DNA from: Candidatus Latescibacterota bacterium
Lineage (GTDB): Bacteria > Latescibacterota > UBA2968 > UBA8231
Assembly: GCA_964291625.2 (NCBI GenBank)
Contig: OZ220089.1
Span: forward strand, 256,001 to 320,000
DNA: 64,000 nucleotides
Reading direction: 5' to 3'
Shown: piece after piece, positions 27,114 to 53,851 of the stretch
Numbering within the stretch: position 1 is the first letter of the stretch
Layout of the letters: the number at the start of each line of letters is the position of its first letter
Program-made: the position numbers and the translations under genes
Notes under the pieces: generated by a model
Databases searched by the model: none
What the model was told of the DNA's origin: nothing
The model's input: only the letters and a program-made list of their open reading frames with translations

Positions 27114-27114
<1 letters not shown>

Positions 27115-28587: not shown

Positions 28588-28995
28588 CTACTTCCCTCTC
28601 TGCGGCTCCGTGGCGATGATCTGGTCGACCACCCCCACCTGACGAGCGATATCCATGATCTGCACGATCTGGCCATGGGTGGCGCGCTCGTCGCCCTGGA
28701 TGATGATCATCGTCGTGTTGTCCAGGATCTGACGCTTCTCCTGGATCCGGTCCTTCAGGTTGGCGAAGGTCACGGTCTGGTGATTCAGCTTCATGTTGCC
28801 GTCCTGATCGACGACGATGAACAGGTTCTCCTTCTCGGGCGCCTGCGCCTCCTCCGCCTCGGGCAGTTTGATGTCGAGACCCGGGGTGATGGCGAAGACC
28901 GCCGTCACCATGAAGAAGATCAGCAGCTGGAACACCACGTCGATCATCGGCGTAAGGTCCGGCTTCTCGTCGTAGCGCCTTTTTTCCTGTGCCAT
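28588..28995 (-). CDS. exbD: ExbD/TolR family protein
   Basis: DLTPMIDVVFQLLIFFMVT with the conserved TM Asp; IIIQGDERATHGQIVQIMD. Confidence 0.93.
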   Translation of the reverse strand: MAQEKRRYDEKPDLTPMIDVVFQLLIFFMVTAVFAITPGLDIKLPEAEEAQAPEKENLFIVVDQDGNMKLNHQTVTFANLKDRIQEKRQILDNTTMIIIQGDERATHGQIVQIMDIARQVGVVDQIIATEPQRGK

Positions 28996-29019
28996 TATTC
29001 GGCCTCCGAGCCCCCCCGG

Positions 29020-29670: not shown

Positions 29671-29759
29671 GATCGCTGATCCTCCTTGAGTTAGGGCTCA
29701 GATCTCTCGGCCCGAATCACTGAGTAAAAGGTTCATTGCGATGCCATGGTTTCGGGTGC

Positions 29760-33998: not shown

Positions 33999-34051
33999 TT
34001 TAGGCTCCTCCTTGCTGGCCGCCCGCGTCTCCCGCGGGCCTGGGCGAGACA

Positions 34052-35725: not shown

Positions 35726-35967
35726 GCCGGCCGGAGCCGAGTTGTGGCGCGCGCAGGTCATGGTCGATGCCGGCGGCTGCCCACTGGAGAGGATATCCAG
35801 TCGAGGGGGATGATCGCGGATCGGTCGCGCGTAAGATAGCCCCCTGCCGGGGGCCGGCAACCGGCTTCGGCCGCACCGGCCGGACGCTCCGCGGCCCCGT
35901 CCCGCGACGTGCCCCGGGTATGGGTGTCTTGCCCCTCTGCGGCGCCTCCTTAGGTTCGGTCGGACCG

Positions 35968-37452: not shown

Positions 37453-37459
37453 CGCTGAC

Positions 37460-39196
37460 GTGACACCCTGGACCCTCGTGGCCCTGGCCGCCGCCCTGGC
37501 GGGCTGCCGGCCGGAGGCGCCCCCCGGGGCCGCCGGGCCCGCGGAGGGGCCGCCGCCCGCGGGATTCGCCGTCCGCTTCGTCGACGCGGCCGCCGAGGTC
37601 GGCCTCGACGCCGCCCACGTGAGCGGCTTCAGCGAGGCGCGGTTCTTCCCCGAGACCATGGGCGGCGGCGGCCTGTTGTGGGACTACGACCGCGACGGCT
37701 GGCTGGACGTGTACCTCGTCAACGGCAGACCCCTCGCCCCCGGCGACGACGGCCCCCCCGTCGGCAACCGGCTGTTCCGCGGCCTCGGGGACGGCACCTT
37801 CGCGGAGACGACCTCCGCGGCGGGTGTGGGCCACCGGGGCTACGGCAACGGCTGCGTCGCCGGCGATCTCGACGGCGACGGCGACGGCGATCTCTACGTC
37901 ACCAACTACGGCGCCGATGTGCTCTTCCGGAACGACGACGGCGCCTTTGGCGACATCACCCTCGCCGCCGGCCTCGGAGACCCGGGCTGGGGCACGGGGT
38001 GCGCCGTCCTCGATCACGACCTCGACGGCGACCTGGACCTCTACGTGGCGCGCTACGTCGACTACGAGCTGGCCGACGCCGCGACGGAGACGGTCCCGTA
38101 CCTCTCCCGCTCCGAGGGCGCCGGACCGGGAGGGCCGGGATACCCCCATCCCGACAACTTCGACGGCCTCGGCGACCTGCTGCTGCGCAACGACGGCGGC
38201 CCGGGTCCGGTCTTCACCGACGTGTCGGCCGCCGCCGGCGTCCACCTGGCCGGCGGCAAGGGCCTGGGCGTGGTCACCGCGGACGTGGACGGCGACGGCT
38301 GGACGGACCTGTACGTGGCCAACGACGCGACGCCGAACTACCTCTTCATCAATCGCCGGGACGGGACCTTCGAGGAGCGGGCCGCCCGCTCCGGGGTCGC
38401 CTACGGCGAGAGCGGCCTGCCGGAGGCGGGCATGGGGGTCGACGCCGCCGACTACGACGGCGACGGCCGCCTCGACCTCACGGTGACCAACTTCCAGGGA
38501 GAGCCGAACAGCCTCTTCCGCAACCAGGGGGACGGGTCCTACTTCCTGCCCGAGGCGTACGCCTCGGGCACCGGCGCCGTCACGGTCCCCGCCCTGGCCT
38601 TCGGCACCAACTGGGTCGACGTGGACGGCGACGGCCGGCTGGACCTGTTCGCGGCCAACGGCCACGTCCTCGACAACGTGCGCTCCTTCGACCGCTCGAC
38701 GACCTACCGCCAGCGCAACTTCCTGTTTCACAACCGCGGGCCGGGGGCCTACGGCAACACCCTCTTCGCCGACGTCACCTCCATCGCCGGCCCGGGCCTG
38801 GCCCAGGAGCGCGTGAGCCGCGGCTCGGCCGCCGGCGACCTGGACAACGACGGCGACCCGGACCTCCTGGTGATCAACCTCGGGGACCGGGTGTCGTTGC
38901 TGCGCAACGAGGGCGGCAACGGCAACGGCTGGCTGTCGGTGCGCCTGCGGCGGGCCTCCTCCGGCGGCGGCGAGGGCGCCCGGCTGCGACTGCACTCGCC
39001 GTCGGGAACACAGTGGCGGGAGGTCAGCAGCGGCCGCAGCTACCTGTCCCAGAGCGATCCCCGGGTGCTCTTCGGCCTCGGGCCGGACAGCCGGGTGGAC
39101 AGCCTGGAGGTCTGGTGGCCGGGCGGGGCCCGCGAGGTCTACCGGGACCTGGAGGCGGGCCGGTTCCTCGACCTGGTCGAGAACGGGGCCCGCTGA
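37460..39196 (+). CDS. CRTAC1-family lipoprotein (FG-GAP repeats plus ASPIC/UnbV)
   Basis: Lipobox LAGC; ETMGGGG...DYDRDGWLDVY; multiple DxDGDGxxD; SYLSQSDPRVLFGLG. Confidence 0.9.
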   Translation: MTPWTLVALAAALAGCRPEAPPGAAGPAEGPPPAGFAVRFVDAAAEVGLDAAHVSGFSEARFFPETMGGGGLLWDYDRDGWLDVYLVNGRPLAPGDDGPPVGNRLFRGLGDGTFAETTSAAGVGHRGYGNGCVAGDLDGDGDGDLYVTNYGADVLFRNDDGAFGDITLAAGLGDPGWGTGCAVLDHDLDGDLDLYVARYVDYELADAATETVPYLSRSEGAGPGGPGYPHPDNFDGLGDLLLRNDGGPGPVFTDVSAAAGVHLAGGKGLGVVTADVDGDGWTDLYVANDATPNYLFINRRDGTFEERAARSGVAYGESGLPEAGMGVDAADYDGDGRLDLTVTNFQGEPNSLFRNQGDGSYFLPEAYASGTGAVTVPALAFGTNWVDVDGDGRLDLFAANGHVLDNVRSFDRSTTYRQRNFLFHNRGPGAYGNTLFADVTSIAGPGLAQERVSRGSAAGDLDNDGDPDLLVINLGDRVSLLRNEGGNGNGWLSVRLRRASSGGGEGARLRLHSPSGTQWREVSSGRSYLSQSDPRVLFGLGPDSRVDSLEVWWPGGAREVYRDLEAGRFLDLVENGAR

Positions 39197-39205: not shown

Positions 39206-41824
39206 CTACGGCTCTATGCCCGCGTAGATGGTGATGAAGCCTCGCGTCCGGGTCTTCACCGGCTCGAACCGGAGGTCGCGGCGGCTGACCTCGAAACCGA
39301 GGGTGGTGGTCAGCAGGTAGCCCTGGTAGTCGGACAGGTTCATGATCTGCACCGTCGTCGTCAGCCCCCTGTAGGAGGGGCTGGCCCCGGGGGGCACCGG
39401 GTCCCGCAGCTGGTTGAAGACCTCGTACTCCACGCCCCCTTCGACGAAGCTCTTCTGCATGATCGGGTGGCGGAGGACGATCATGAAGAGCTCGGTCAAC
39501 TCCTGGCGGCGCGACTCTTCCCGGGCCACCGGGGCCGAGCGCGACCACTCGCTCTTCCACCGGGGTGTGACGAGCGTCTGCCCGAGGCTCCAGCTGTAGT
39601 GGGCCTTGTTGATCACCCCGAGGAACCAGGACGACCGGCGCTGGCCCCGCAGCTCCAGGTCGAGGTCGTCGTCGACCTGCCGCCACCAGGTCCACTTCAC
39701 CTTGTTGTCCAGGGAGAGATCGCCCCTCCGGTGCTGCCAGCCCGCCCAGGTCGTGTTCACCCAGGTGTCCTGCGCCGCCAGCGGGTCGAGGACGGGGAAG
39801 AGATCCCCCCGGGCGTTGGGCAGCTGCACCCACTGCAGCAGGTCGTCGCGGATCGTGTCCCGGACCCGGCGCAGGTCCTGGAAGAGACGCAGACGCCCCC
39901 GGGCGGCGGTGTTCCAGTCGACGGCGAGCTGTCCGTAGTTGGCCCGGTTGTGGCGGTCGTCGGAGATCTGCTCCACCTCCATGCGGCCCAGGGTGAGGCG
40001 GATGTCGGGCCCGACGTGGAAGCCGCCGTAGAGGTTGAAGCCCTGCTGGTCGCGCCGGTAGGGGAAGTCGGGCCGCTCGTCGTTCTCGAAGCGGTCCACC
40101 GTGCCGTTGTGGTTGGCGTCGACGCCGTAGAGGTACGCCGGGCGGTCGGCGAAGTAGCGCAGGAAGGGCTCCTCCCAGTCGGGGAGCAGGTTCTGGCGCT
40201 CCTCGTTGTCGTTCTGGTTGAAGTCCCAGATGCGGTCGTTGTTCTCGTCGAGCCCCGGGAAGACGTCCTCGTCCCCCGCGCTCGAGCCCTTGCGGCGCCA
40301 GTCCGGAGCCCTGTCGTAGTCGTCGTTGTCCTCGACGAACTCGTAGATCTCGAAGAGGTTGTCGTAGTCCGGCACCGAGGTCTCCTTCTCCACGGTGGCG
40401 AAGGAGGTGGAGTACCCGGGGTCCATGCCGAAGGCCTCGAGGAGGCCGAACCACGGGTAGTCCTTGCGGGAGACGTTGAGCAGCCACCCCAGGGACCGGT
40501 CCCGGGCGGTCTCGTGGCGCTCCCGGTGCGGGTTGGGGTACTTGCGGTAGCGGTGGTTGAGGTTGACCTCGAGGTAGCCGTCGAGCCCGTGGAGGTCCGT
40601 CGTCTGCACCGTGAAGCCGGCGATCTGGTTGCCCGTGGGCATGCCGTAGTCGAAGCGCAGGACGCGCTGGTTGGAGCCGTCCCTGACGTTGCCCCGGGCC
40701 CTGGCGAGGGGCAGAAAGACGACGACGTCGTCGGCGTTGACCTGGCGGTCGGAGGCGATGTCGATGCGGTAGTCGTTGGCCACCACCAGCTCGACCTCGA
40801 CGCGCTCGATCTCCGTCGGGTCGGGTCCCGCGTAGGTGCGGTCGCCGAAGTCGTAGGTGACGACGATCTCGTCGCCGTCCGCCGCCAGGAACCCGGCCCG
40901 CTGCAGGCCGCCCTCCACGAGGGGGCGGAAGCCGATCTCGGAGGCGCGGACGGTGCCGCCGTCGAGGTCGTGGATCCGCAGGTCCGAGGAGAACAGGGCG
41001 CCCCCGGAGCCGTCGCCGGGAGAGTCGTCGGAGATGCGCACCTGGATGCGGTTGACGGTGCGGAAGTTCTGGCCCTCCGAGAGCACGCCGGAGATGATGT
41101 CGCTACCGAAGCCGTCGAGCTGGGTGACCGAGTGGTGGGCGTTGACGTAGGTGCCGCCCACGACCAGGAAGTCGCCGACCTGGGACTCCATCCGGCCCCC
41201 GAAGAGGTTGGTGTTGCTGGTGCGCCCCTCCGGCAGGAACGAGGGCGAGTTGGGCTCGTTGATGCGCGACAGGAGGAGGGTGACGGCGTGCTTGTCGGAG
41301 GCGAAGTCCCACTGCAGGCCGTTGAACTCCGGCTTGCTGAAGGTCATCGGCGTAAGGGTCGTGCGGATGCGGTTGCCCACGGTGACCGCCAGGTGGTACT
41401 GCCCCTTGTGATCGGAAGCCACGGCGAGGCTCGAGAACCAGCCGCTGAAGCGGCCCGTCTTCTCCAGCACGCTGCCGAAGGGCACCGAGTTCTGCTGGCG
41501 CCAGTCGTAGACCAGCCAGCCGCGGGTCAGCAGGTTGCCGTAGGCATCGTACCAGTAGTCCCCCTCCAGCGACGTGGAGACGTAGCGCTGGTAGTTCTGG
41601 CGGGCGTAGTTGGAGTACTGCCACTGCTTCCACTGGTACTCCGCGTAGAGCTCCTGGGGCACGTACCACTTGCGCAGGGCCGGGTCGAGGGCGTCGAAGA
41701 TCACCCCCGGCCCCGTGGGCTCGAAGCTGACCCGGCCGCCGCGCTTGACCGTGCCCAGGCGGGCGCCGTAGTCCTGGGCCCCGGCGGCGGCGGCCAGCAG
41801 CAGAATCGTCAGTATCCGCACCAT
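39206..41824 (-). CDS. Hypothetical exported, putative outer-membrane protein (~872 aa), paralog A
   Basis: ATG at 41824 with signal MVRILTILLLAAAAGAQ; amphipathic beta strands; Asp/Asn-rich segment; colinear similarity to 43782-46499. Confidence 0.7.
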   Translation of the reverse strand: MVRILTILLLAAAAGAQDYGARLGTVKRGGRVSFEPTGPGVIFDALDPALRKWYVPQELYAEYQWKQWQYSNYARQNYQRYVSTSLEGDYWYDAYGNLLTRGWLVYDWRQQNSVPFGSVLEKTGRFSGWFSSLAVASDHKGQYHLAVTVGNRIRTTLTPMTFSKPEFNGLQWDFASDKHAVTLLLSRINEPNSPSFLPEGRTSNTNLFGGRMESQVGDFLVVGGTYVNAHHSVTQLDGFGSDIISGVLSEGQNFRTVNRIQVRISDDSPGDGSGGALFSSDLRIHDLDGGTVRASEIGFRPLVEGGLQRAGFLAADGDEIVVTYDFGDRTYAGPDPTEIERVEVELVVANDYRIDIASDRQVNADDVVVFLPLARARGNVRDGSNQRVLRFDYGMPTGNQIAGFTVQTTDLHGLDGYLEVNLNHRYRKYPNPHRERHETARDRSLGWLLNVSRKDYPWFGLLEAFGMDPGYSTSFATVEKETSVPDYDNLFEIYEFVEDNDDYDRAPDWRRKGSSAGDEDVFPGLDENNDRIWDFNQNDNEERQNLLPDWEEPFLRYFADRPAYLYGVDANHNGTVDRFENDERPDFPYRRDQQGFNLYGGFHVGPDIRLTLGRMEVEQISDDRHNRANYGQLAVDWNTAARGRLRLFQDLRRVRDTIRDDLLQWVQLPNARGDLFPVLDPLAAQDTWVNTTWAGWQHRRGDLSLDNKVKWTWWRQVDDDLDLELRGQRRSSWFLGVINKAHYSWSLGQTLVTPRWKSEWSRSAPVAREESRRQELTELFMIVLRHPIMQKSFVEGGVEYEVFNQLRDPVPPGASPSYRGLTTTVQIMNLSDYQGYLLTTTLGFEVSRRDLRFEPVKTRTRGFITIYAGIEP

Positions 41825-41841
41825 CCCCTTCTCCCCGCTCT

Positions 41842-43785
41842 TCAGTAGGCCACGGCGAGAACGCCGTGGTGGTCCTCGGCAAAGGCGTCGGCGTCGATCC
41901 GCAGGCGCCAGATATAGGTGCCCGGCGCCAGGGGGCGGCCGTCGGCGCCGCGGCCGTCCCACAGGTATTCCGAGGGCCCCAGGCCGTGGAGCCCGAGGTC
42001 GGCGTGGGCCACGCGCCGGCCGGAGAGATCGAAGAGCTCGAAGCGCACCGGGGCCCTGTCGGTCAGTTGCAGCAGGTTGAACTGCACCCGCAGTCCGTCG
42101 TTGAGGCCGTCTCCGTTGGGCGTCACCACCCGGGTGGAGAGGGCGATCTGTCCCACGAGGCGGCCGATCTGCTCCTCCGGGATGGCCACGAAGAGACCGG
42201 ACAGCTCGTCGTGGTCGCCGGGCCCGAAGTCGGCGGCATCGCCGCCCTCGAGGGGCTGGGGCACGGAGGGATAGCGGCTGTTGATGGCGCGGCCCGAGAA
42301 CGTGGTCCCGAAGCGGAACACCGGCAGATCGAAGGTGAACTCGAGGACGTCCCCCGCCCCGGAGATGAGGGGCAGGCCGATGCGGAAGGCGTCGTGCCTC
42401 GAGAACAGGACCTCCGCCTCCAGGGCCTCGCCGTTCAACCGCACCTCGCGCACCCGCTCCATGGGGACCGTCGTGTCCACCTCGAGCTGGTCGAAGCCGA
42501 GGACCGCTCCCGCCCGGCCCACGCGGACGGCGTAGCGGAAGCTGGCCGGCTCCTCGACCTGCGCGAGTCGCGGATAGACCTCCGCCCGCAGGGTGTCGGC
42601 GATCGGCGGCCTCAGATAGGGGAAGGAGATGCTGTCCACCTGCCGGGTGTCGAAGAGGCGGCCGGCGAACTCCAGCCGGAACTGCACCCAGCGGCGCGGG
42701 ATCGGGGCGGTGACCGGCGCCCCGAGGGCCGCCGACTTCCAGGGGCTCCAGCTGTCGACGTCCTCGACCACCCCGGCGCGGTCCTGGGACTCGAGGTCCC
42801 GGTACTCCTCCGGGGTGATCTCGGCGAGGATGGTGCTCTCCGGATCCTCCGGGTCGGGCACGCGGCGCCGGAAGACCAGCGGCGTGTCGTCGTTGCCCGT
42901 GCGCACTCGCACCCTCATCTCGGAGAACGCGGGCGGCCCGGCGATCTCCTCCACCCAGCGCAGCGGCCCGATGGAGGCCCGCCCCCCGAGGTCGATCAGG
43001 TCCGAGTAGTAGACCCCTCCGTCCAGGTACCCGGTGCCGTAGACCTCCAGCTCGTCCACCTCGAAGGGCCGCTCGCTCAGGGAGCGCAGCTTCACCTGGC
43101 GCACGTAGCGCGGGTCCACGCGCACGTCGACGACGGGGTCGGTGTTGTTGGTGACCCGCTCCACGAGGATGTCCGGACTGCCGGCGGCGCGATCCGTCTG
43201 CCGCGGGTTGATCCACACCTCGTAGGCGCGCAGGTAGTCGTCGTGGAAGGGCGTCTCCGGCGTGGCCGCGACGGTGTTGCGCGGATAGAAGCGGATGCGC
43301 TCGACCCCCACCTGGCGCCCGAAGTCGAGCCACACCCAGATCCCGAAACTGGTCAGGGTCGGCTCGAGGAGGGTCGGCTTGCGCTCGAAGGCCACGGTGT
43401 GGTCGCCGTTCACCAGCCCCTCCAGCTGCCTGCGCACCAGGGCGGAGGGCCGGCCGATGGAGTTCGGCGCCCGGATGCGGCCGCCCCTCTCGAGGACGAG
43501 GCCGGCGATGTTGGTCTCGCCGTCGTAGTACCGGGGGCTGATCCAGCCCGGGCGATGGTCGAACTCGATGTCGGCGCCGGGGGCGTTCCCCGTGTCGAGG
43601 ACCGCCCGGACGCCGGACTTCACCAGGTGGACGGGGTCTCCCCGGCCGCCCCCTTCGGCCCAGGAACGGCCGCCGTCCCCGAGGGTGTAGCGGCCGAGCT
43701 GGGCCCCGGCGCCGTCGGCGCAGGCCAGGACCGCCAGGGCGAGGGCCGCGGCGCCGGCCCGCCGGGTGCGGAGGCCGCGGCTCAC
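41842..43785 (-). CDS. Secreted protein (~647 aa): discoidin-like domain plus C-terminal FlgD-Ig / T9SS type-B CTD-like domain
   Basis: GTG at 43785; signal ending GAGAQ; WLDFGRQVGVERIRFYPR; VTPNGDGLND...LFDLSGRRV...WDGRGADGRPLAPGTYI; ends AVAY. Confidence 0.8.
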   Translation of the reverse strand: MSRGLRTRRAGAAALALAVLACADGAGAQLGRYTLGDGGRSWAEGGGRGDPVHLVKSGVRAVLDTGNAPGADIEFDHRPGWISPRYYDGETNIAGLVLERGGRIRAPNSIGRPSALVRRQLEGLVNGDHTVAFERKPTLLEPTLTSFGIWVWLDFGRQVGVERIRFYPRNTVAATPETPFHDDYLRAYEVWINPRQTDRAAGSPDILVERVTNNTDPVVDVRVDPRYVRQVKLRSLSERPFEVDELEVYGTGYLDGGVYYSDLIDLGGRASIGPLRWVEEIAGPPAFSEMRVRVRTGNDDTPLVFRRRVPDPEDPESTILAEITPEEYRDLESQDRAGVVEDVDSWSPWKSAALGAPVTAPIPRRWVQFRLEFAGRLFDTRQVDSISFPYLRPPIADTLRAEVYPRLAQVEEPASFRYAVRVGRAGAVLGFDQLEVDTTVPMERVREVRLNGEALEAEVLFSRHDAFRIGLPLISGAGDVLEFTFDLPVFRFGTTFSGRAINSRYPSVPQPLEGGDAADFGPGDHDELSGLFVAIPEEQIGRLVGQIALSTRVVTPNGDGLNDGLRVQFNLLQLTDRAPVRFELFDLSGRRVAHADLGLHGLGPSEYLWDGRGADGRPLAPGTYIWRLRIDADAFAEDHHGVLAVAY

Positions 43786-46499
43786 TGCAGCCCCGCGTTC
43801 ATGCTCACGAAGAGCAGCGACGAGCGTTCGGCCGGTCCCGACTCCGGGGCGCGGTCTCCTACCTGGATGCCGCCGCGCGTGACCAGCTGGTAGCCCTGGT
43901 AGCCGACCCGGTTGATCACCTGCACGATCAGGGTTCGGGCCGTGAAGCCGCTGTCGAGCTCCCGGCGCTCCCCCTCCAGCAGCCAGCCCCGGGTCCACTC
44001 CAGGCCGAGCTGCAGCTCGGTGTCGAAGAGTTGCTTACCGTAGCGGGCGTAGTAGTTGACGCTGGTCAGCTCGGAGAGCAGCGGCTGCCGCCACATGAGG
44101 AAGAGGGACTCCTCCAGGCTGCGGGCCGGGGGCCGCCGGGCGTCGTAGGGGCGGTCGGCGCGGTACTCGCTCTTCCAGCGCGGCTCCAGCAGTCCCCGGC
44201 CCACCGGGATCGACCACTCGGCCCGGTTGATCAGGCCCAGGAACCCCGACCTCACCCGCCTCTCCTCCAGGCGCACCTCGTCCTCGTCCCGGCGCTGCCG
44301 GAAGGTCTCCCACTTGAACCGGTGGAAGAGGCGCACGCCCCGTCCCGGCCGCTGATCGAGGTCGGCGTAGAAGGTGTTGCGCCAGGTGTCCCGGGAGGGC
44401 AGCAGGTCCCGGTCGTCCTCCATGCGCCCCGTCGAGCCGCTCGGCTGCACCCAGGTCTGCAGATGATCGGGGATGTCGTCGCGCACCGAGGCGCCGAAGT
44501 CGAAGAGGCGGAGGCGGGAGCGCCCCAGGCGCCCGGTCCAGGCGAGCATGGCGTACCACGACTCCGTCCTGCCGTCGCCGGAGATCAGGCGCATGCGCTG
44601 GCGGCCGGCCACGAGGCGGGCGTCGGGGGTGACGAAGAGCTTGCCGTGGAGGTTGAAGCCGCGGTGGTCGCGCCGGTAGGGGTAGTCGGCATGCAGGTCG
44701 TTCTCGAAGGGGTCGGCGGTGCCGTTGTGGTTCATGTCGACGCCGAAGAGGAACTCGGGCCGGTCCGACCGGAAGCGCAGGAAGGGCTCCTCGTAGTCGG
44801 GAACCAGGTTGCGGTTGTAGTTGAGGGAGACCGCCACCGGCTCTCCCGGCCGCGCGAAGGCCCCTGCCGGGCGGCGGGTGTTGTTCTGGTTGTAGTCGTA
44901 GATGTAGTCGCGGTTGAAGTCGACGCCGGGGAAGGCGATCCCGCCCGAACCGGTCTGCCACGGCCGCGACCACTCGGGGACGGCGTCGTGGTCGTCGTCG
45001 TCGTCGACCAGCTCGTAGAGCATGGGCACGGGGGCCTTGTACTGGATCAGGCCGTTGCCGAGGGTCAGCCAGTGGTTGGTGCTGTAGGCGTCGTCCATGG
45101 AGAACGTCTCCAGGAACAGGCCCCACGGATAGAGGTTCCAGGCGGCGATGCCGTAGGCGGCCCAGGCGGTGCGCACCATCTCGTGGTGCCGGCTCAGCCG
45201 CGGATTGGGATACCTCCGGTGCTGGCGGTTGAGGACCGTCTCCCCCTGCACCGACAGACCGTGCCAGTCCACCAGGTCCCAGTCGAAGCCGACCAGCTCG
45301 TTGGCCGTGGGCAGGCCGTAGTCGAGGAGCAGGACGCGGCCGTTGCTCTCGTCCCGGACGTTGCCCGCCGCCCGCGCGTAGGGGAGGAAGACCGTCTCCG
45401 GGTTGCGCAGGCCGTCCGTCTGGAGATTCGAGGCGAGCTCGATCCGGTAGTCGTTGGCCACGGCCAGCTCCACGGCGGCCGCCGTCAGCGCCCTCGGGTC
45501 GAGGCCGAGCTCGTGCAGGCCCCCCAGGTCGTACTCCAGGAGCAGGCGCTCCGACCCGTCCACCACCAGGGCGCCTTCGCGCAGGCGCCCTCCCTCGATC
45601 AACGGAAGGAGGCCGAGGTCCCGGCCGCTGATGCGCACCCCGTTGGTGTCGGTGAAGACGATGTCGTGGCGGAAGACCCGGGCGCCGCCGACCCCGTCCG
45701 CCGGCGAGTCGTCCCGGACCTGCACCCAGAGCTTGTCCGGGGTACGGTTCTGATTGCTGGTGAGCACGCCGGCCAGCGGGTTGCCGGCCCGGAACTCCGG
45801 CTCGGTGTTGGAGTTGTGCAGGTTCACGTAGGTCAGCCCGAAGCTGCCGGCCGCGAAGGGGACGTAGCCCAGCCGGCCGCCCATCAGGTGGGTCACGTTC
45901 CGGCGGGGGCCGGTGGGCTGGCTCGGCCGGGAGAGGAGCAGGGTGCTCTCGAGCCGGTCCCTGGCATAGTCGAGGCGCACCCCCTCGAAGCGGGGCTTGC
46001 GCAAGGTCAGGGGCGTGAGCTGCGCGTCGAGGACACTGCCCATCATGAGGCGGTAGGTCTCCCCGCCCCGCCGGTCCGAGGCGATGGCGAGCCCCTGGAA
46101 GGCTCCCGGGAACTGAGGCCACAGGATGTCCGAGCCCTCCCGCGACGGCTGCACCTGCTCCCAGGAGTAGACCAGCCAGCCGCGGCCCAGGTGCTCGCCG
46201 AAGGAGTCGTACCACTCCTCCCCCGCCAGGAACGGGTCCAGGTAGCGCAGGTAGCGGTCGCGGGCGTAGTTGGCGCCGGTTTCGTACCAGTGGGCGGCGT
46301 AGGTCCCGGCCAGGCTTCGGGAGGCGTACCACTTGTGCAGGGCCGGAGTCGTGTAGTCCACCTCGAAGCGCGGGGACAGGTCGGCCAAGGCCCGCGTGGG
46401 GTGACTCTGTCCCTCCACCAGGGGCGGGAAGCCCCCGGCCAGGAGCAGGGCCGCCCACAGGGCCGCACGGGGCCCCCGACCGGTCGCCGGAGCGGGCAT
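43782..46499 (-). CDS. Hypothetical exported, putative outer-membrane protein (905 aa), paralog B
   Basis: Signal peptide; shares PAL(R/H)KWY, NYAR, RGWLVY, TP(M/L)T, VANDYRI, DYG(M/L)PT and EEPFLR with paralog A. Confidence 0.7.
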   Translation of the reverse strand: MPAPATGRGPRAALWAALLLAGGFPPLVEGQSHPTRALADLSPRFEVDYTTPALHKWYASRSLAGTYAAHWYETGANYARDRYLRYLDPFLAGEEWYDSFGEHLGRGWLVYSWEQVQPSREGSDILWPQFPGAFQGLAIASDRRGGETYRLMMGSVLDAQLTPLTLRKPRFEGVRLDYARDRLESTLLLSRPSQPTGPRRNVTHLMGGRLGYVPFAAGSFGLTYVNLHNSNTEPEFRAGNPLAGVLTSNQNRTPDKLWVQVRDDSPADGVGGARVFRHDIVFTDTNGVRISGRDLGLLPLIEGGRLREGALVVDGSERLLLEYDLGGLHELGLDPRALTAAAVELAVANDYRIELASNLQTDGLRNPETVFLPYARAAGNVRDESNGRVLLLDYGLPTANELVGFDWDLVDWHGLSVQGETVLNRQHRRYPNPRLSRHHEMVRTAWAAYGIAAWNLYPWGLFLETFSMDDAYSTNHWLTLGNGLIQYKAPVPMLYELVDDDDDHDAVPEWSRPWQTGSGGIAFPGVDFNRDYIYDYNQNNTRRPAGAFARPGEPVAVSLNYNRNLVPDYEEPFLRFRSDRPEFLFGVDMNHNGTADPFENDLHADYPYRRDHRGFNLHGKLFVTPDARLVAGRQRMRLISGDGRTESWYAMLAWTGRLGRSRLRLFDFGASVRDDIPDHLQTWVQPSGSTGRMEDDRDLLPSRDTWRNTFYADLDQRPGRGVRLFHRFKWETFRQRRDEDEVRLEERRVRSGFLGLINRAEWSIPVGRGLLEPRWKSEYRADRPYDARRPPARSLEESLFLMWRQPLLSELTSVNYYARYGKQLFDTELQLGLEWTRGWLLEGERRELDSGFTARTLIVQVINRVGYQGYQLVTRGGIQVGDRAPESGPAERSSLLFVSMNAGLQ

Positions 46500-49001
46500 C
46501 AGTAGGCCACGTGCACGAGGCGGACCCGGCTGGTGCGCCGGCCTCCGGTGTCCACGCCCACCCCGACGCGGGCGGCATAGATGCCCGGCGCCACGAGGGC
46601 GCCCGAGTCGTCGCGGCCGTCCCAGGGGAAGTCATGGCGGCCGCTGGCCTGGGGCGGCACCCGGGTCAGGTCGCGCACGAGCCGGCCGGAGAGGTCGTGG
46701 ATGCCCACCGTGATCCGCGGCGGCCCCCGCACCTGGAAGACCTGGAAGGAGAGGACGGCCTCGTCGTTGACGCCGTCGCCGTTGGGGGTCAGCACCGGCG
46801 GCGTCACCTCCAGCGGCGCCAGCAGGCGCCCGGCCTCCAGGTCGGAGACGACCACCAGGGACTGGCTCTCCACCAGGTCGGTGGCGTCTCCCTCGCTGGC
46901 GATCTGCAGGATCCCGGGCTTCCGAGGAGCGGGACAGCTCGACCCGGAAGGTGGTGCCGCTGAGGAAGACCTGGGTGCGGATGCGGGCCGCATAGACCGA
47001 GCGGCCCGAGGTGACCGGCCCGGGAAAGCGGACGTCCACGCCTCCCTCCACCGGAGCGGCGGAGGCGGTGGCCAGCAGGTCGACGGCGTTCCCCGTGCGC
47101 AGGCGGGCCTCGGAGCCGGCGTGCAGCGACACCAGTGTCATGGGCGCGCTCGAGGAGGAGCGGATCCCCATGCGGTCGAAGCCCGGGTCGCCCGCCCGGA
47201 AGCGGGGCCGCATGTAGATGGTGAACTCCTGATCGACCCCCGCGGGCACCTCGCTGGTGGGCCAGATCTCGGCCCACACCTGGTCCACCAGGGGCTCGGC
47301 GAGACCGATCCGCAGGCCGCGTATGGCGGCGCGCCTCAGGGGGTTGATGGTCAACAGGCGCACCTGGGCCAACGCGTAGCGCCGCGGACTCGGCGAGCGG
47401 AAGGGCTCCGGCGACTCGCGGTAGACCTCGCTCCAGCTGCTCCACTTCTGCCCGGGCACGTAGAGCGTGTCCACGGGACCCCGGTTCGACTCGCGGGCCC
47501 TCTCCCAGCGCTCCTGCTCGATGGGGAAACCGGCGGCGTCGAGGTATCTCAGCTCCTGGCGCAGGTCGTCTCCCGAGCGCGTGCGGACCTCGATGCGGGT
47601 CTCCCGCGGCGCCTCCCCCTCCCACGACAGGGAGCTGAACATGCGCGACCCCGGCAGGGCGATCAGGGGGGAGGTGAGGACCACCTCCGAGACGAAGCCC
47701 TCGCCGAAGGCCAGCATCTCGGCGAGCTGGCCGCTCTCCTGCTCGGTGCCGAGCAGCGCCAGGGCCCGCAGCTGCACGTGGCGCACCTCCTGCAGCGGGA
47801 AGCTCTCCTCCAGCTGGTGGAAGCGGTCGCGGTTCAGGCGCTCGTCCAGCTCGTTCCAGACGCGCTCCCCGTTGGGGTCGATGGAGCCGTCGGAGAGCAG
47901 CACCTGGTAGGCCCGAAGCGGCTGCTCGGGGGTGACCAGGCGCACCCGGTCGAGCCAGTACTTGGCGCCCAGGTCGACCTCCAGCTGGTTGCGCCGGCGC
48001 ACCTGGTCATACGGCTTGATGGGGAACCACGTGTAGAAGAACCCGTCCGTCGAGATGGTGCGCACCAGGTCGCCGATGGCCCGGGTCTGGAGGTTGATGA
48101 GCCGCTGCGTGTTGAGGACCACGTTCTCTCCGGGGGTGATCACCTCCAGCTCCGCCACCCGGGGGCGCTCGCGGCGGAAGTGGCGCACCGGCCCCCGTTC
48201 GGCCTCGGGCAGGTCGCTCCAGGTCGCCTCGGAGACCGGGATCTCCCGGCCCGCCACCGTGGTGCGGTGGTAGGCCACCGCGCCCCGGTCCTCCGGCGGC
48301 AGGGCCGCGTGCTCCTCCGGCGAGACCTCGCGGCCTCGGTCCCCGTCCGAGCCGAGGGCCTCCAGACGGACGAACTGCACCACCTGGCCCGTCACCCCCG
48401 GAGGCAGGGGGCGCTGCGGCTTGATGTCGAAGACGAAGTGCCGCCCGTCCTTGTTGGGCAGGACCACCTGGCCGGCGCGGAAGTACTCCAGGTCGTCGTT
48501 GAGGCGGCCGAGCCCGTTGGAGAGGCGTACGCGGAACTTCAGGAACGGATCGCCCTCGCCCTCGGGCGCGAACCGCACCACCACCTGCTCGGCGATCACG
48601 GCGCGGCCGAGGTCGATCTCGACGAACCAGTCCTCCACATCGTCGGCCGGGTCGGGCTCCCACCAGGTGAGGGGGTCCCCGTCGTGCACCAGGGATCCCG
48701 TCTCCGCGCCGCTGCCGATGGCGTGGACGCCGCCCGTGACCGTGTCGGAGTCGGCGAATATGGCCATGTACTCGTGGGCATCGAGGGCGGCGTTGCCCCG
48801 CCGCTGCAGCCCCCGGGGGGTCACGGTGCCGTCAGGCCCCAGCTCCAGGGCGCCCTCGGGCAGCTGCCACGCCGACCAGTGAGCGGCGCGGTCGACGACG
48901 ACCTCCGTCGGCCTCAGCCGGTACCCCTCCTGGGGGGCTGCGGCGGTGCCCAGGAGCACGAGAGCGGCCGCGAGCCAGCTGGGCGGGCGGGGACGGACCA
49001 T
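46499..49001 (-). CDS. Secreted protein (~833 aa if corrected) with discoidin-like domains and FlgD-Ig / type-B CTD-like tail; apparent 1-nt frameshift at ~46918-46923
   Basis: ORF 46632-49001 (HDGDPLTWW...EIDLGR; EVDLGAKYWLDRVR) joins the frame of 46499-46993 (PGILQ...LTPNGDGVND...WDGRDDSGALVAPGIY...HVAY) after removing one base. Confidence 0.78.
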
Positions 49002-50813
49002 TCAGTAGGCCAGTTCCACCACGCCCCGGCGCCGGCCGGTGCCGCCGTCGGCATGCACGCGCAGCTCGTAGAGGTAGAGGCCGGGAGGGACCCGGCGGCC
49101 GCTGCTGTCGAGACCGTCCCAGGCGGCGGTGAGGGTGCCGGCGCCGTGCTCCGCCTCCCAGGCCCGGACCAGGGGGCGGCCGTCGACAGCGAAGATGTCG
49201 AGGGTCAGCCTCGCCGGTTCCATGAGCTTGAGGAGGGTGAAGGTCAGCTCGAGCCGGTCGTTGACGCCGTCGGCGTTCGGGGTCGTCACGGGGCTGGCGG
49301 CCCTCAGGTTGGAGATCAGGGACAGGCGCCCCGCTGCCGCCCCGTGGCGGACGACCAGACCGCCTCCGGGCTCGCCGTCGATGTCGGCGGGGCGCGCGAC
49401 CTGGTAGGCCACCCTCGATCCCCCCTCCTCGGTGCGCCGGTCGATGGCCTGCACCTCGAACCTCGTGCGCTCGTGGAAGACCGTGGCCGTGAACTCCACC
49501 TGCAGGAAGCTGCCGTCCTGCACCACCCGGCGGGGCAGGTTGACGGTGAAGCCGGTGCCCGGCTCGACGTCGATGAAGGGCAGGACCTCCAGGTCGTCGA
49601 CGCGGATGCTTTGGACCTCGCCGATCTCGGCCGCCGTCCTTACCTGCAACTGCCGGAAACCGGTGTCCCGGTGAGACTCGGAGCCGGTGCGGTCCAGGTG
49701 GACCTGAAGGGAGAGGGTGAAGGGGCTCTCCACCCCGGCCCGCGCCTCCAGGGGCGAGATCTCGGCCGCCAGGTCCCGGGCGACCGGTGGATGGATGTAC
49801 TCGAACCGCAGCTCCCGCAGGCCGGCGCCGGGTTCCGTCAGGGTGATCTGGAACTGCAGGTAGCGTTTCAGGGGTGGCGAGCGCACGAGTCCGTCGGTGA
49901 CCGGCTCCCATGGGCTCCAGGCCGGATTGGGCTCGACCGGCCCCCTGTCCTCCGGCGGGGCGTTCTCCCAGCCCGCCTTGCTGTACTGGATCACGTCGCC
50001 GCCCTGGATCAGGTAGTAGAGGAGGGGGCTCCGGTCCGGCCCGGTGCGGGTGCGCACCACCACGGGCGCGGTGGAGATGTCGCCGCCCTCGTAGAGCACG
50101 CGTCCCCACACGGGCTCCGGCCGGCCGGCCCGCAGCGGCTGGGACTCGTACTCCCCCACGGGGACCGTGCCGTCCGAGTAGACCTCCAGCTCGGCGATCT
50201 CCCAGGCGCGGTCGACCTGCGGCTCCAGGGCCAGCAGGCGCGCCTCCACGCTGGGGAAGCGCTTGTCCACCACGGGGGAGGTGTTCTCGTTGGGGGCCTT
50301 GAAGAACATCAGCCGGCGGGAGTCGGCCAGGGGGTCGAGACTCTGCGCCGCGGACAGGGTGAACTCCTGCAGGAACCGGTTGCGGTTGCGGAAGTCGAGG
50401 CGGGGGAAGAACCGGACGCGGTTCATACGGAAGGTGGCCCCCAGGTCGACCCACAACGTGGAGGACCGCTCCACGCCCTCCTGCAGGTCGGGATCGAAGA
50501 AGGTGGTCGGATCGCCGTCGAAGAGCGCTTCGCCGCCGGGCAGCGGCGTGAACCCCCTCTCCGGGTCCGAGTACAGCACCCGTCCGCCGCGCTCGCCGAG
50601 GGTGGCGGTCAGGTTCGCGTTGGCCTCCACGTCCCACATCCAGATGCCGTCCCCGGTGACGGCGACGTACCGCGAGGAGGACTCCGCCCCCCGCCAGGAG
50701 AGCTCGGGGCCGACGGAGACGTAGCGGACCTCGCCGGCCGACGGTCGGCCCAGCGACAGGAGGGCGGCCGCTACCGCCAGCGGCCGCATCATCGCCAGGT
50801 GAGTTGCGGCCAT
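49002..50813 (-). CDS. Secreted protein (~603 aa): discoidin-like domain plus FlgD-Ig / type-B CTD-like tail
   Basis: ATG at 50813; LFDGDPTTFF...WVDLGATFRMNRVRFFPR; TTPNADGVND...WDGLDSSGRRVPPGLY; ends ELAY. Confidence 0.8.
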   Translation of the reverse strand: MAATHLAMMRPLAVAAALLSLGRPSAGEVRYVSVGPELSWRGAESSSRYVAVTGDGIWMWDVEANANLTATLGERGGRVLYSDPERGFTPLPGGEALFDGDPTTFFDPDLQEGVERSSTLWVDLGATFRMNRVRFFPRLDFRNRNRFLQEFTLSAAQSLDPLADSRRLMFFKAPNENTSPVVDKRFPSVEARLLALEPQVDRAWEIAELEVYSDGTVPVGEYESQPLRAGRPEPVWGRVLYEGGDISTAPVVVRTRTGPDRSPLLYYLIQGGDVIQYSKAGWENAPPEDRGPVEPNPAWSPWEPVTDGLVRSPPLKRYLQFQITLTEPGAGLRELRFEYIHPPVARDLAAEISPLEARAGVESPFTLSLQVHLDRTGSESHRDTGFRQLQVRTAAEIGEVQSIRVDDLEVLPFIDVEPGTGFTVNLPRRVVQDGSFLQVEFTATVFHERTRFEVQAIDRRTEEGGSRVAYQVARPADIDGEPGGGLVVRHGAAAGRLSLISNLRAASPVTTPNADGVNDRLELTFTLLKLMEPARLTLDIFAVDGRPLVRAWEAEHGAGTLTAAWDGLDSSGRRVPPGLYLYELRVHADGGTGRRRGVVELAY

Positions 50814-50814: not shown

Positions 50815-52319
50815 TCAGAACGGCGCCCAGTTCGGGTGCAGGTCGTCGTACGGATCATCGGTCACCCGCTCCTCGGCGCCGCCCTCGACGGGGACGATGT
50901 AGATGTCGTAGCGCGTCTCCACGTCGACCAGCCGGGCGAAGGCGATGCGGGTGCCGTCGGGAGACCAGGTGGGAGTCTCCTCCCAGGCCTCGCCGAAGGT
51001 CAGCTGCCGGGCGCCGCTGCCGTCGGCGGCCATGACCCAGATGTGGCTGATGTCGAAATCGTCCGGATCCAGCGCGACATAGGCGATCCAGGCCCCGTCG
51101 GGCGACCACGAAGGTTGTCCGGCGTACTGGCCCTCCGGCGAGAGCCGCTCCGTGCCGCCGCCGGCCGGGTCCATGATGGTGATACCGTCCTCGCCGTCGT
51201 AGGCGATCGAGGCGCCGTCGGGCGACCACGCGGGCGACCGGCCCCACGGGGCCAGGGGCTCGTGGGTGAGCCTCTCCACGCCGCTGCCGTCGGCGTTCAT
51301 GACGAAGACCTGCGGCCCCCTCCCTCCCCCGCCGCTGCGCTCGAAGGCGATGCGCTGGCCGTCGGGCGACCAGGCGGGAGCCGAGTCGTAGGCGTCGCCG
51401 CGCGTCAGGTTCACCGGGTTCCCGCCGTCGGCGTCCATGACGTAGATCTCGAGGTCCCCGTCGCGGATCGAGCTGAAGGCCACCTTCGTCCCGTCCGGCG
51501 ACCGGGCCGGCTGCTCGCCCCGGCGGGTGAAGTAGAGGGTTTCCAGGGAGTCGGGGAAGGTGCCGTCCGACTTCGGCAGACCGATCAGGCCCGAGGACAG
51601 GTTCACCACCTCGCCGCTCTCCAGGTCCAGGGAGTGCACCTCCAGGTCGCGCAGGTATTCGCTCTCGAGGCGCCGGTTCGAGGTGAACAGGAGCTGAGTA
51701 GCGTAGGCCGACCCGTCCGGCAGGACCACCTGCGCCGTGTCCTCCGGCTCCGGTGCCGTGAACTCCACGGTCACCCCCCCTCGCGGAGGGCGGCGGCCTG
51801 GGCCCGGGCCGCCTCGCTCAGCGGGTTGCCGGTGAGATCGACGCTCTGCAGGCTGTCCAGACCCGCCAGGGCCGACACCTCCGCCACCTCGTTGTCGGCC
51901 AGCAAGAGCACCTGCAGGCCCTTCAGCGACTCCAGGGGCGTGACCTCCTCGACCCGGTTGCTCCCCAGGTCGAGGTAGCGCAGCCGCGTCAGCCCCGACA
52001 GCGGCGACAGGTCGCGGATCTCGTTGCCGTACAGGTCCAGGGCCTCCAGCCGGCTCAGCTGCTCGATGCCGTCCAGGTTCGCGATCCCCCGCTCCTTGGC
52101 CGTCAGCGAGACCAGCCCGGCCGCGTCGCCTGTCTCCCCCGCGGCTTCGGTCACCGCCGACTGCAGGGCCGAGTCCGCGAAGACCAGGGCGACGCCCGTG
52201 CCGCCCCCGGGGCCGGGGCCGACGGGCGGGTCGGGCTCGGAGCCGCAGCCGGCCAGCATCAGGACGGCCACCAGGGCCGCGAGCTTCCAGGTCATCACCA
52301 TCGCAGGCGCTCCGGACAT
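50815..52319 (-). CDS. LRR plus TolB-like (PD40) beta-propeller lipoprotein, copy 4; split by a 1-nt frameshift in a G7 tract at 51774-51780
   Basis: Lipobox MLAGC; internalin-type LRRs; WSPDG repeats; ends PNWAPF. Adding one G restores REGGVTVE, colinear with paralog RERGVTVE. Confidence 0.85.
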
Positions 52320-52320
52320 C

Positions 52321-53850: not shown

Positions 53851-53851
53851 C

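Follow-up and report, generated by a model that had tools for sequence, protein, structure and literature searches.

The 64-kb stretch of DNA from an uncultured Latescibacterota bacterium analysed here (the window) carries a five-gene cassette on the minus strand (50813-39206), in which genes for three secreted proteins with C-terminal domains (CTDs) resembling type IX secretion system (T9SS) type-B signals are interleaved with genes for two giant predicted outer-membrane β-barrels, in the order cargo, cargo, barrel, cargo, barrel. The barrels are most likely dedicated outer-membrane partners of the CTD proteins, acting as carrier or anchor and possibly as conduit. We propose, as an explanation to which we give an even chance, that the cassette encodes cognate lectin- or adhesin-like CTD proteins together with dedicated giant barrels that hold them at the cell surface, within a larger envelope module. 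The proposal is built on gene order, translational coupling, paralogy, CTD homology, the predicted barrel fold and gene linkage in 51 assemblies, all of which we observed.

The strand and the junctions of the cassette were read directly from the sequence, and the order and coupling given in the preliminary description of this DNA hold. CargoA (49002..50813, minus strand) follows the upstream PD40 gene through TGAgATG and is joined to cargoB (46499..49001, minus strand) by TGA/ATG with zero spacer. The ATG of barrel1 (43782..46499, minus strand) shares 1 nt with the cargoB stop (TGATG), cargoC (41842..43785, minus strand) starts with GTG in a 4-nt overlap with barrel1 (GTGA), and barrel2 (39206..41824, minus strand) is separated from cargoC by a 17-nt spacer with a GGGGAG-type Shine-Dalgarno sequence. 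The GC3 values of all five ORFs (0.89-0.97) are of coding type. Such coupled junctions count in favour of cognate cargo-barrel pairs. CargoB had been treated as one ORF, which it is not in the window: one extra base at about 46920-46921 (window TCGGAAGCC, against TCGG-AGCC, one base fewer, in locus L002) breaks the frame; the N-terminal part belongs to the frame of 46632-49001, the CTD to that of 46499-47137, and the span of 2503 nt amounts to 834 codons plus 1 nt. In the near-identical locus L002 (95% DNA identity) cargoB is an intact ORF of 833 aa. The array of LRR-PD40 genes upstream changes frame twice more, near 55790 and at 51774, and together with the cargoB break these changes indicate indel errors or recent decay; programmed frameshifting in cargoB is the less likely reading, given the in-frame copy in L002 and these two changes.

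CargoA is a 603-aa secreted all-β protein, cargoB a discoidin-domain protein and cargoC a 647-aa secreted multi-domain β protein, and hydrophobic, signal-like N-terminal segments were recognised in the cargos by eye. Of the three proteins previously described as secreted paralogs, cargoA and cargoC are indeed paralogs (29% identity, E=1e-44), while cargoB is only distantly related to them (E=1e-4 outside the CTD). In all three the CTD reaches the last residue (ELAY in cargoA, HVAY in cargoB, AVAY in cargoC) and the tail contains TPN(G/A)DGxND and WDG..PGxY, so that these shared features of the preliminary description stood, whereas the discoidin-like domain that it assigned to every cargo has HMM support in cargoB only (PF22633 scores 29.9 bits, above its cut-off of 27.8, and PF00754 24.2 bits, below its 28.2). 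The match of cargoA to F5_F8_type_C_2 is weak (E=0.085), and cargoC and its orthologs (35 sequences) gave no match to a discoidin HMM. The AF2 model of cargoC (pLDDT 79.7) finds PorU, galactose oxidase, neuropilin b1b2 and Ig-rich proteins in Foldseek, as well as the S-layer protein 7ptp, the discoidin resemblance being at the level of the fold and of low TM-score. Taken together, the cargos look like adhesins.

The type-B-like character of the tails, also proposed before, is favoured by cargoC, which matches PF13585 (CHU_C) with 27.0 bits at a gathering cut-off of 27, by its orthologs, of which 35/35 match CHU_C at E<=0.01, and by the NCBI product name of some of them, 'T9SS type B sorting domain-containing protein'. 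The corresponding score of cargoA is below the cut-off (22.4 bits), and the frame encoding the cargoB CTD has no CHU_C match at E<=0.001 (Pfam). The FlgD_ig model scores 27.9 bits in cargoC (cut-off 27), 20.3 bits in cargoA and 39.8 bits in the cargoB CTD frame. TIGR04131 is matched by 21/35 cargoC orthologs at E<=0.01, and the window tails, with 15.2 and 13.5 bits, remain far under its cut-off of 35. Judged by these profile matches, the cargo tails are probably divergent T9SS type-B (CHU_C)/FlgD-Ig-like domains; FlgD_ig scores at or above those of CHU_C, with low TIGR04131 scores, mean that they could also be a generic Ig-like module. Tyrosine is the terminal residue in 192/209 CTD ORFs.

The two large proteins, barrel1 (905 aa) and barrel2 (872 aa, with a signal peptide), had been called paralogs, and they align over their full length with 37% identity (E=2e-166). 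Neither matches a Pfam or NCBIfam family at E<=0.1. An HMM built for their own family spans positions 38-880 of barrel1; the family numbers 767 representatives when clustered at 50% identity, and at least 591 genomic matches to it were confirmed in species-representative genomes. The AlphaFold and Foldseek check favours the barrel fold. The AF2 model of barrel2 (pLDDT 82.9, pTM 0.81) consists of about 26-30 long meander strands connected as hairpins, with turns of 2 residues and longer loops in alternation, and DSSP assigns 30 strand segments to it, 26 of them with at least 8 residues, closure and strand number both being estimates. The top Foldseek matches are all large outer-membrane barrels of 26-30 strands (SlpA, LptD, MtrB; TM 0.17-0.32, identity 7-10%), and the best three are Deinococcus SlpA (8agd, 8ae1, 7zgx; E about 1e-7, TM 0.17-0.28). 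SprA appears only at ranks 22 and 31 (TMq 0.18-0.19), and an identity as a mini-SprA was rejected. The SlpA_C family (PF21620) is matched weakly by 9/52 barrel family members (best E=7.6e-5), and the window barrels match neither SlpA_C nor SLH in Pfam. A search of PDB chains with the single barrel sequence found nothing, and the barrel profile found PDB sequences at chance level only (a nanobody, E=0.011; a restriction enzyme subunit, E=0.065). In the ESM Atlas the nearest named cluster, DUF6029 ('TonB-dependent receptor-like'), stands at 0.89, below the level at which it would be more than a lead, and was set aside; the matches are otherwise unnamed clusters from Latescibacterota and Gemmatimonadota.

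Barrel2 has a conserved N-terminal segment at about residues 38-130 and an Asp/Asn-rich, EF-hand-like loop at about 495-592 with invariant D499, D526, D569, N571, N573, D577 and E580. Hydrophobic dyad periodicity in the predicted strands of the single sequence is not above that of shuffles (1.76 vs 1.56 ± 0.22), and that of the family profile is modestly above it (1.44 vs 1.12 ± 0.16; 21/1000 shuffles reach the value). Neither window barrel contains cysteine, and family members end a few residues past the last strand. No fused barrel forms above 1527 aa were found, which is weak evidence. The large proteins are thus predicted, from the model and its fold matches, to be outer-membrane β-barrels of an unannotated family.

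The association of the barrels with CTD proteins extends well beyond the window. A CTD gene ends just upstream, on the same strand, of 96/109 barrel ORFs with an N-terminus, and CTD-barrel (CB) adjacency is found in 73/80 loci from 51 assemblies of Latescibacterota and of MAGs labelled Gemmatimonadota or Handelsmanbacteria, related genomes in which these counts are not independent events. The adjacency spans at least five module architectures and barrels that are 45-75% identical. Many loci hold two or three CTD genes per barrel (CBMCC, MCBCC), a departure from strict one-to-one pairing, and genomes carry several paralogous barrel loci. The preliminary description had named the lack of a barrel fold or of conserved linkage to CTD proteins as what would speak against it; the proteins are predicted to be barrels and the linkage is strongly conserved, and neither check refutes it. 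The conserved linkage suggests a mode of protein display at the cell surface that is so far undescribed.

The cassette lies within a larger cluster, also on the minus strand, which the earlier account had missed. Upstream, four tandem paralogs of lipoproteins with LRR and PD40 (TolB-like β-propeller) domains (50815..56848, minus strand) were delineated with the Pfam PD40 and LRR models and a tblastn map, and the last of them is coupled to cargoA directly downstream. Their scores against the TIGR02800 TolB propeller (190-199 bits) are under the cut-off, and their homologs come after the barrel in 13/80 loci (pattern BPC). Beyond barrel2 are a CBM9-like secreted protein (34838..35761, minus strand; PF06452, E=2.7e-4, 21.3 bits vs 23.4), whose Atlas clusters carry CBM9_1 and which has a homolog in 45/80 loci, most often placed immediately behind the barrel or ahead of the CTD genes; a 250-aa putative lipoprotein (34052..34804, minus strand) with the sequence ...LGLCGASGC... 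and no family match, which has a homolog in 19/80 loci; and a small outer-membrane barrel that probably belongs to the PorV/PorQ (FadL-like) family (33072..34052, minus strand). The last of these matches NF033709 (PorV_fam) over model positions 3-325 of 326 with 84.4 bits (cut-off 90, E=1.1e-23), is far under the cut-offs of the PorQ and PorV equivalog models, and has homologs in L002, L017 and L022. The downstream end of the cluster (27181..33053, minus strand) encodes a giant TPR protein (1097 aa), a TolQ/ExbB-like and TolR/ExbD-like pair and a DUF4159 protein; the motor pair scores best as TolQ/TolR and not as ExbB/ExbD, all Tol matches being below equivalog cut-offs. TPR and FG-GAP/ASPIC genes (Pfam) in the opposite orientation (35767..39196, plus strand) separate barrel2 from this remainder in the window and in L002; the insert is absent there in L012, L017, L018 and L022 and is thus confined to this lineage. 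In L022 (CCBCBMLVTQRD) the TPR, motor and DUF4159 genes are contiguous with the barrel2 gene via the CBM9-like, lipoprotein and PorV-like genes. A GH42 gene lies about 6 kb upstream of the cassette with the four LRR-propeller genes in between; its homolog was seen in 0/80 loci, whose fetched flanks are too short to reach that far, and it makes a weak argument for glycan use.

Known type-B carrier pairs are SprB-SprF of Flavobacterium johnsoniae and PG1035-PorP-PorE of Porphyromonas gingivalis. To our knowledge, experiments have established type-B CTD proteins and their carriers in Bacteroidota alone, with a small PorP/SprF barrel as the carrier. According to published reports, type-B CTD genes are directly followed by a porP/sprF-like carrier gene (PMC12618676), the carrier anchors the type-B cargo (PMC12618676; PMC9143113) and is a 14-stranded FadL-type barrel (PMC9143113), genes for β-propeller and TPR lipoproteins (PorE-like) adjoin the carrier genes in F. 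johnsoniae (PMC9143113), and SprF and its close homologs have a periplasmic C-terminal tail with a Cys-Xaa-Cys motif (PMC12635249). The cassette is similar in that its cargos combine a Sec-type signal, as judged by eye, with a C-terminal CHU_C-type domain and are adhesin-like, the barrel gene stands directly downstream of a cargo gene, position alone being common to both, several cognate pairs occur per genome, and TolB-like propeller genes flank the cargo-barrel pairs as porE-like genes do porP-like ones. It differs in its host phylum, Latescibacterota as opposed to Bacteroidota, and in its tails, which are under the TIGR04131 cut-off and have a near-invariant terminal Tyr. The barrels themselves are about three times the size of PorP/SprF (872-905 aa, about 26-30 strands vs 14), are devoid of cysteine and hence of a twin-Cys tail, and have no match to PorP/SprF (PF11751/TIGR03519) in the window (E<=0.1) or among 52 family members (E<=1). 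The earlier suggestion that they are cognate partners agrees with the published rule in the downstream position; the barrels are not members of the PorP/SprF family, and it is by analogy with these systems that they may be the cognate partners of the CTD proteins. The PorV/PorQ-family barrel in the same conserved cluster counts in favour of such a T9SS-carrier-like pair.

Among large barrels of the 'plug-and-barrel' or sheath type, LptD-LptE and MtrB-MtrA/C have 26 strands, Deinococcus SlpA 30 and SprA 36, and each of the four functions together with a partner protein that sits inside it or on it. The window barrels share their size class and meander β topology; however, LptD, SLH and other family HMMs have no match in them or in the 52 members (apart from the weak SlpA_C matches above), and the conserved N-terminal segment and EF-hand-like loop are seen in none of the Foldseek matches. 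With its TolQ/TolR-like motor, TolB-like propellers, YbgF-like TPR repeats, outer-membrane barrels and putative adhesins, the cluster resembles the Tol-Pal and Myxococcus Agl-Glt systems. It differs from them in that no TolA, TonB or Pal was seen, no Glt family model matched, and its adhesin candidates carry T9SS-type tails. Among the papers listed by the literature search, nothing relevant concerned adhesins and β-barrels in Latescibacterota, and the available part of PMC4454575, on Latescibacteria, makes no mention of T9SS or such barrels.

We considered whether each giant barrel could be the outer-membrane translocon for its adjacent CTD proteins, in a two-partner-like, T9SS-independent manner possibly powered by the TolQ/TolR-like pair, the CTD being a targeting signal whose last strand, with Tyr at its end, makes contact with the barrel. 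From barrel geometry, about 26-30 strands would give a lumen fitting folded Ig-size domains, and the Tyr ends resemble a β-signal-like terminal strand. The strict cargo-barrel adjacency and coupling, the motor and TPR genes in the same conserved cluster, the lack of T9SS core genes (SprA, GldKLMN) within the 64-kb window and a literature search in which no paper linked Latescibacter or Latescibacterota with type IX secretion or T9SS agree with this. However, we know of CHU_C-type tails only as T9SS signals, the PorV/PorQ-family barrel hints at T9SS-type machinery in the lineage, translational coupling suggests a stoichiometric complex over a catalytic channel, and the absence of core genes pertains to the 64-kb window alone. 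Relatives within the FCB group have also been reported as likely T9SS carriers, in the part of PMC11285876 available. On balance, translocation by the barrels themselves appears unlikely. A broader version, an undescribed Latescibacterota envelope machine made up of the barrels, CTD proteins, TolB-like lipoproteins, PorV/Q-like barrel, TPR protein and TolQR-like motor, in which the giant barrel is conduit and anchor at once, the cargo docks by addition of its Tyr-ended strand and the EF-hand-like calcium loop of the barrel keeps it outside, resulting in SprA-free, T9SS-like display and possibly surface movement, is in our view quite unlikely.

The lectin-like domains of the cargos (PF22633 in cargoB; the galactose oxidase and neuropilin discoidin fold matches), the frequent CBM9-like partner, the GH42 gene and an ExbB/ExbD-type motor could instead belong to a SusC/SusD-like uptake system, as the preliminary description had entertained, in which the barrel would be a glycan channel energised by the ExbB/ExbD-like pair, and the CTD proteins would bind glycans at the surface as lids or harvesters. 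No match to Plug or to TonB-dependent receptors was found in the window barrels or the 52 family members, nor a TonB box in the latter, the strand estimate is well above 22, and the partners carry secretion-type CTDs with no SusD family match or SusD-like lipoprotein signal. The motor is best classed as TolQ/TolR with no TonB seen, the cluster is without an inner-membrane sugar transporter, and GH42 did not recur, albeit in flanks too short for a fair test; we consider uptake of this kind very unlikely. Equally doubtful, to a high degree, is a structural coat without a role in secretion or nutrient capture, in which abundant SlpA-like barrels anchor an S-layer-like or sheath layer of CTD proteins. 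It accords with SlpA as the best three fold matches of barrel2, the weak SlpA_C matches in the family, 7ptp among the matches of cargoC and the multiple paralogous loci per genome, but the SlpA TM-scores are low, the window barrels lack an SlpA_C match and an SLH or coiled-coil N-terminal part, the PDB search with the barrel profile yields no meaningful match, and the CHU_C-type tails and motor genes are left unexplained. A coat would in any case overlap with anchoring by the barrels and does not exclude it.

In the anchored-pair mechanism that we prefer, the cargos would be Sec-exported, non-enzymatic proteins that combine a discoidin-like domain and Ig-like domains with a divergent T9SS type-B-like CTD, and the giant barrel encoded directly downstream would be made in step with them via translational coupling. 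The CTD with its almost invariant terminal Tyr may provide the grip for docking of the cargo onto the barrel or into it, and the barrel would retain the cargo at the cell surface and may also aid its crossing of the outer membrane; we infer the physical binding, the surface location, the route across the outer membrane and the ligand. The barrels would thereby stand in functionally for the 14-strand PorP/SprF carriers of Bacteroidota, as a different, larger and unannotated family. The pairs would be part of a bigger module with the LRR-propeller lipoproteins, the CBM9-like protein, the putative lipoprotein, the PorV/PorQ-family barrel, the TPR protein and the TolQ/TolR-like motor, whose likely output is the presentation of glycan-binding proteins, be it for adhesion, to capture polymers or for surface movement.

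The barrel family is large and strongly conserved, and it has neither a Pfam or NCBIfam model, a solved relative nor a paper found in the literature search; it holds the genomic position of the carrier in another FCB phylum. Should the pairing be physical, the barrels would be outer-membrane partners of a new kind for sorting signals of the CTD type, hundreds of 'hypothetical' barrels would gain a function, and there would be a way to study how abundant uncultured bacteria of sediment and water present glycan-binding proteins. Such pairing would have consequences, too, for views of how the T9SS carrier system evolved.

Five consecutive minus-strand ORFs make up the cassette, namely three secreted proteins with a type-B-like C-terminal domain (CTD), cargoA (50813-49002, 603 aa), cargoB (49001-46499, split between two frames in the window) and cargoC (43785-41842, 647 aa, GTG start), and two large predicted outer-membrane barrels, barrel1 (46499-43782, 905 aa) and barrel2 (41824-39206, 872 aa). 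The window has a G+C content of about 70%, and the third-position G+C of 0.89-0.97 in all five ORFs indicates that they are real genes in this genome. The junctions are tight: cargoA adjoins cargoB with zero spacer (TGA followed directly by ATG), cargoB overlaps barrel1 by 1 nt (TGATG), barrel1 overlaps cargoC by 4 nt (GTGA), and cargoC and barrel2 are separated by 17 nt that include a ribosome-binding site of the GGGGAG type. Because the start of cargoA is itself coupled to a PD40-propeller gene upstream (TGAgATG), the cassette forms the distal portion of a longer operon. Full-length identity between the two barrels is 37% (E=2e-166); cargoA and cargoC share 29% identity (E=1e-44), with cargoB more distantly related. 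The preliminary description treated cargoB as one ORF; in the window its final ~100 residues (TPNGDGVND ... HVAY) are encoded in a second frame, at 46499-47137. Locus L002, which comes from a public MAG of Latescibacterota and shares 95.4% identity with the window across 14.6 kb, encodes cargoB as an uninterrupted 833-aa ORF with one base fewer at 46920-46921, where the extra base of the window (minus strand AA in TCGGAAGCC) breaks the frame of a gene of 2503 nt, i.e. 834 codons and one base. Either an indel in the assembly or a pseudogene of very recent origin accounts for this break. Two further frame changes lie in the adjoining upstream array of LRR-PD40 genes, at 51774, where copy 4 falls into separate LRR and PD40 ORFs, and near 55790 within copy 1, which makes assembly indels no less likely than genuine decay.

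Each cargo protein begins with a hydrophobic segment that, judged by eye, resembles a signal peptide, and ends in a domain of about 100 aa. Scored from its proper start, cargoC reached 27.0 bits against Pfam CHU_C (‘Type IX secretion signal domain’; gathering score 27) and 27.9 bits against FlgD_ig, cargoA stayed under the cut-off on both models, the tail of cargoB matched FlgD_ig alone, and the window tails scored far under the cut-off of NCBIfam TIGR04131. Among 35 cargoC orthologs, all matched CHU_C at E<=0.01 and 21 matched TIGR04131. PF13585 is precomputed in most of the 120 cargo homologs listed, a few of which carry the NCBI names ‘T9SS type B sorting domain-containing protein’ or ‘gliding motility-associated C-terminal domain-containing protein’. 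From these sequence matches, we conclude that the tails are probably divergent members of the CHU_C/type-B CTD superfamily, a superfamily that itself overlaps FlgD-type Ig domains. The 209 terminal-CTD ORFs in 80 related loci (L001-L080) carry a TPN(G/A)DGxND-like motif in 167 cases, a WDG..GxY-like motif in 189 and a C-terminal Tyr in 192 (AY 90, VY 89). The terminal-Tyr rule is far stricter than the domain match alone would demand, and is reminiscent of the beta-signal of outer-membrane proteins. An AlphaFold2 model of cargoC (35-sequence alignment, pLDDT 79.7) is all-beta and multi-domain, and its Foldseek matches are Ig-rich surface proteins, PorU, galactose oxidase and neuropilin b1b2, with the low TM-scores expected of a flexible multi-domain model. 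Among the three cargos, HMM support for a discoidin domain was confined to cargoB.

In Pfam and NCBIfam neither barrel matched a model at E<=0.1, and neither matched a PDB sequence. They belong to a large, well-conserved family, with at least 919 homologs in a 90%-clustered set, the best 120 of which are 56-98% identical over the full length and all unnamed or ‘hypothetical’, and 767 representatives at E<=0.001 in a 50%-clustered library. The AlphaFold2 model (52-sequence alignment, mean pLDDT 82.9, pTM 0.81) has about 30 long strands, connected alternately by 2-residue turns and longer loops, and this predicted series is the pattern of an outer-membrane barrel; the figure of 26-30 strands comes from the DSSP list of the model and is, like the closure of the barrel, an estimate. 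A crude test of hydrophobicity alternation along the strands gave no significant signal for the single sequence and a modest one when averaged over the family (21 of 1000 shuffles reached the value), which is weak support. Outside the strands lie a conserved DDSPxDG motif and, disordered in the model, a conserved N-terminal segment (~38-130). An invariant Asp/Asn-rich stretch of barrel2 (~495-592; window ~40050-40340, minus strand), between two barrel strands, matched no Pfam model; its spacing, D-x-N-x-N-G-x-x-D-x-x-E, in our own reading resembles EF-hand or dockerin calcium loops. Because of the turn/loop alternation, the 125-residue insertion that contains it is presumably on the long-loop, extracellular side.

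The pairing of CTD and barrel genes extends well beyond the window. A barrel profile scan with one genome per species returned 591 confirmed relatives, and the best 80 loci were kept; they derive from 51 assemblies by hand count, with up to five kept loci per assembly, and every host is either a member of Latescibacterota or a MAG with the label Gemmatimonadota/Gemmatimonadetes or Handelsmanbacteria. Using HMMs built from the three window tails and the barrel alignment, we found a same-strand terminal CTD ending just upstream of 96 of the 109 barrel ORFs that retain an N-terminus (counting the two in the window). The 13 exceptions comprise three barrels at contig edges, seven behind another barrel and three others (L011, L013 and L036). 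CTD-barrel (C-B) adjacency occurs in 73 of the 80 loci, the remaining seven being truncated or edge cases, and the exact order of the window, C-B-C-B, was found again in 23. Other architectures keep the pairing, including, with M for a CBM9-like gene, CBMCC (12 loci), MCCB (11), CBB (7) and MCBC (6), so the linkage has outlasted rearrangement among old paralogs. Because the genomes are related, none of these counts represents independent events. In the tandem CBB loci (L043, L044, L052, L054, L068, L078 and L015) one barrel gene follows another, and on the opposite strand of L064 lie two additional barrel relatives that are more distant (E ~1e-103 to 1e-114).

The cassette is flanked by a wider cluster, which the preliminary description had not recognised. 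Upstream on the minus strand, an array of four tandem lipoprotein paralogs combining LRR and PD40 (TolB-like propeller) domains occupies 50815-56848; parts of the paralogs share 59-83% identity, and in 13 loci a gene of this type lies between a barrel and a further CTD gene (pattern BPC). Downstream, on the strand of the cassette, lie genes for a CBM9-like protein (45 of 80 loci have a homolog), a lipoprotein (19 of 80), a PorV/PorQ-family barrel (33072-34052, 326 aa; NF033709 matched along the whole model at 84.4 bits, just below the cut-off of 90), a 1097-aa TPR protein and, at 27181-29697, a TolQ/ExbB-like and TolR/ExbD-like pair with a DUF4159 protein after it. The PorV/PorQ-family protein is the only T9SS-flavoured component identified in the window besides the tails. 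For the TolQ/ExbB-like and TolR/ExbD-like pair, the best-scoring models were TolQ and TolR (both below cut-off), and neither TolA nor TonB nor Pal was seen in the vicinity. Plus-strand TPR and FG-GAP/ASPIC-UnbV genes (35767-39196) separate barrel2 from this downstream cluster, an interruption shared with L002; the cluster is contiguous in L012, L017, L018 and L022. In L022 the CBM9-like, lipoprotein, PorV/PorQ, TPR, TolQ/TolR-like and DUF4159 genes trail barrel2 uninterrupted, and in L012, L017 and L018 the first two or three are in the same place. A second FG-GAP/ASPIC paralog (25285-27114, plus strand) adjoins a lamin-tail-domain protein (24358-25284). Elsewhere in the window, an 1866-aa minus-strand ORF (11855-17455) unites an M28 peptidase-like region with MacB-periplasmic and FtsX permease domains; the ORF after it (9353-11854, minus strand; 833 aa) has a very high third-position G+C (0.96) and matched no Pfam or NCBIfam model.

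In Bacteroidota, as described in PMC12618676, every type-B CTD substrate relies on a cognate PorP/SprF-like outer-membrane protein, whose gene usually lies directly downstream; this protein remains attached to the substrate and serves as its surface anchor (PMC12618676, PMC9143113). The carriers are FadL-type barrels with 14 strands, and genes for propeller/TPR lipoproteins (PorE-like) often stand beside them (PMC9143113). The Latescibacterota cassette shares the genetic logic of this system and would resemble it in its working. The giant barrels, however, do not belong to the PorP/SprF family, from which they differ in every defining feature tested, i.e. HMM match, strand number and Cys tail; barrel1 and barrel2 contain no cysteines. 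Since the cassette repeats the Bacteroidota genetic logic with another partner, we favour a dedicated-partner role, and propose, with an even chance of being right, that the giant barrels hold the lectin-like CTD proteins at the cell surface and possibly help them across the outer membrane. To cross, the cargo would use either the barrel itself or a canonical T9SS translocon with its genes in another part of the genome.

Other roles can be weighed against the same data. Foldseek against the PDB matched the barrel model to outer-membrane barrels exclusively, the best being Deinococcus SlpA (30 strands) and LptD and MtrB (26 strands), at TM-scores of just 0.17-0.32 and 7-10% identity. An SlpA-like anchor for a surface coat would fit the first of these matches; Pfam SlpA_C matched 9 of 52 family members weakly and neither window copy, and we regard this role as quite improbable. 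SprA appears at ranks 22 and 31. The possibility that the barrels form a self-contained translocon is somewhat less remote, if still unlikely. It is equally improbable as the coat anchor that barrels and cargo form a SusC/D-like uptake complex. No catalytic family matched cargoA, cargoB or cargoC; a GH42 gene (56950-59058, minus strand) lies upstream of the LRR-PD40 array, and a search for homologs found none in the 80 loci, whose flanks are too short to reach that far. Divergent from it are genes for a carbamoyltransferase (620 aa) and then a small SxtJ-like protein (59063-61379, plus strand).

Our literature searches found no paper linking Latescibacterota to T9SS, and the list of other FCB phyla in which T9SS may occur, as given in a review (PMC11285876), does not include this phylum, for which none of these cassette features has been described before. 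The sorting-tail superfamily and the genetic logic of the cassette are known; what is new is an unannotated and much larger partner family, together with a distinct set of accessory genes.
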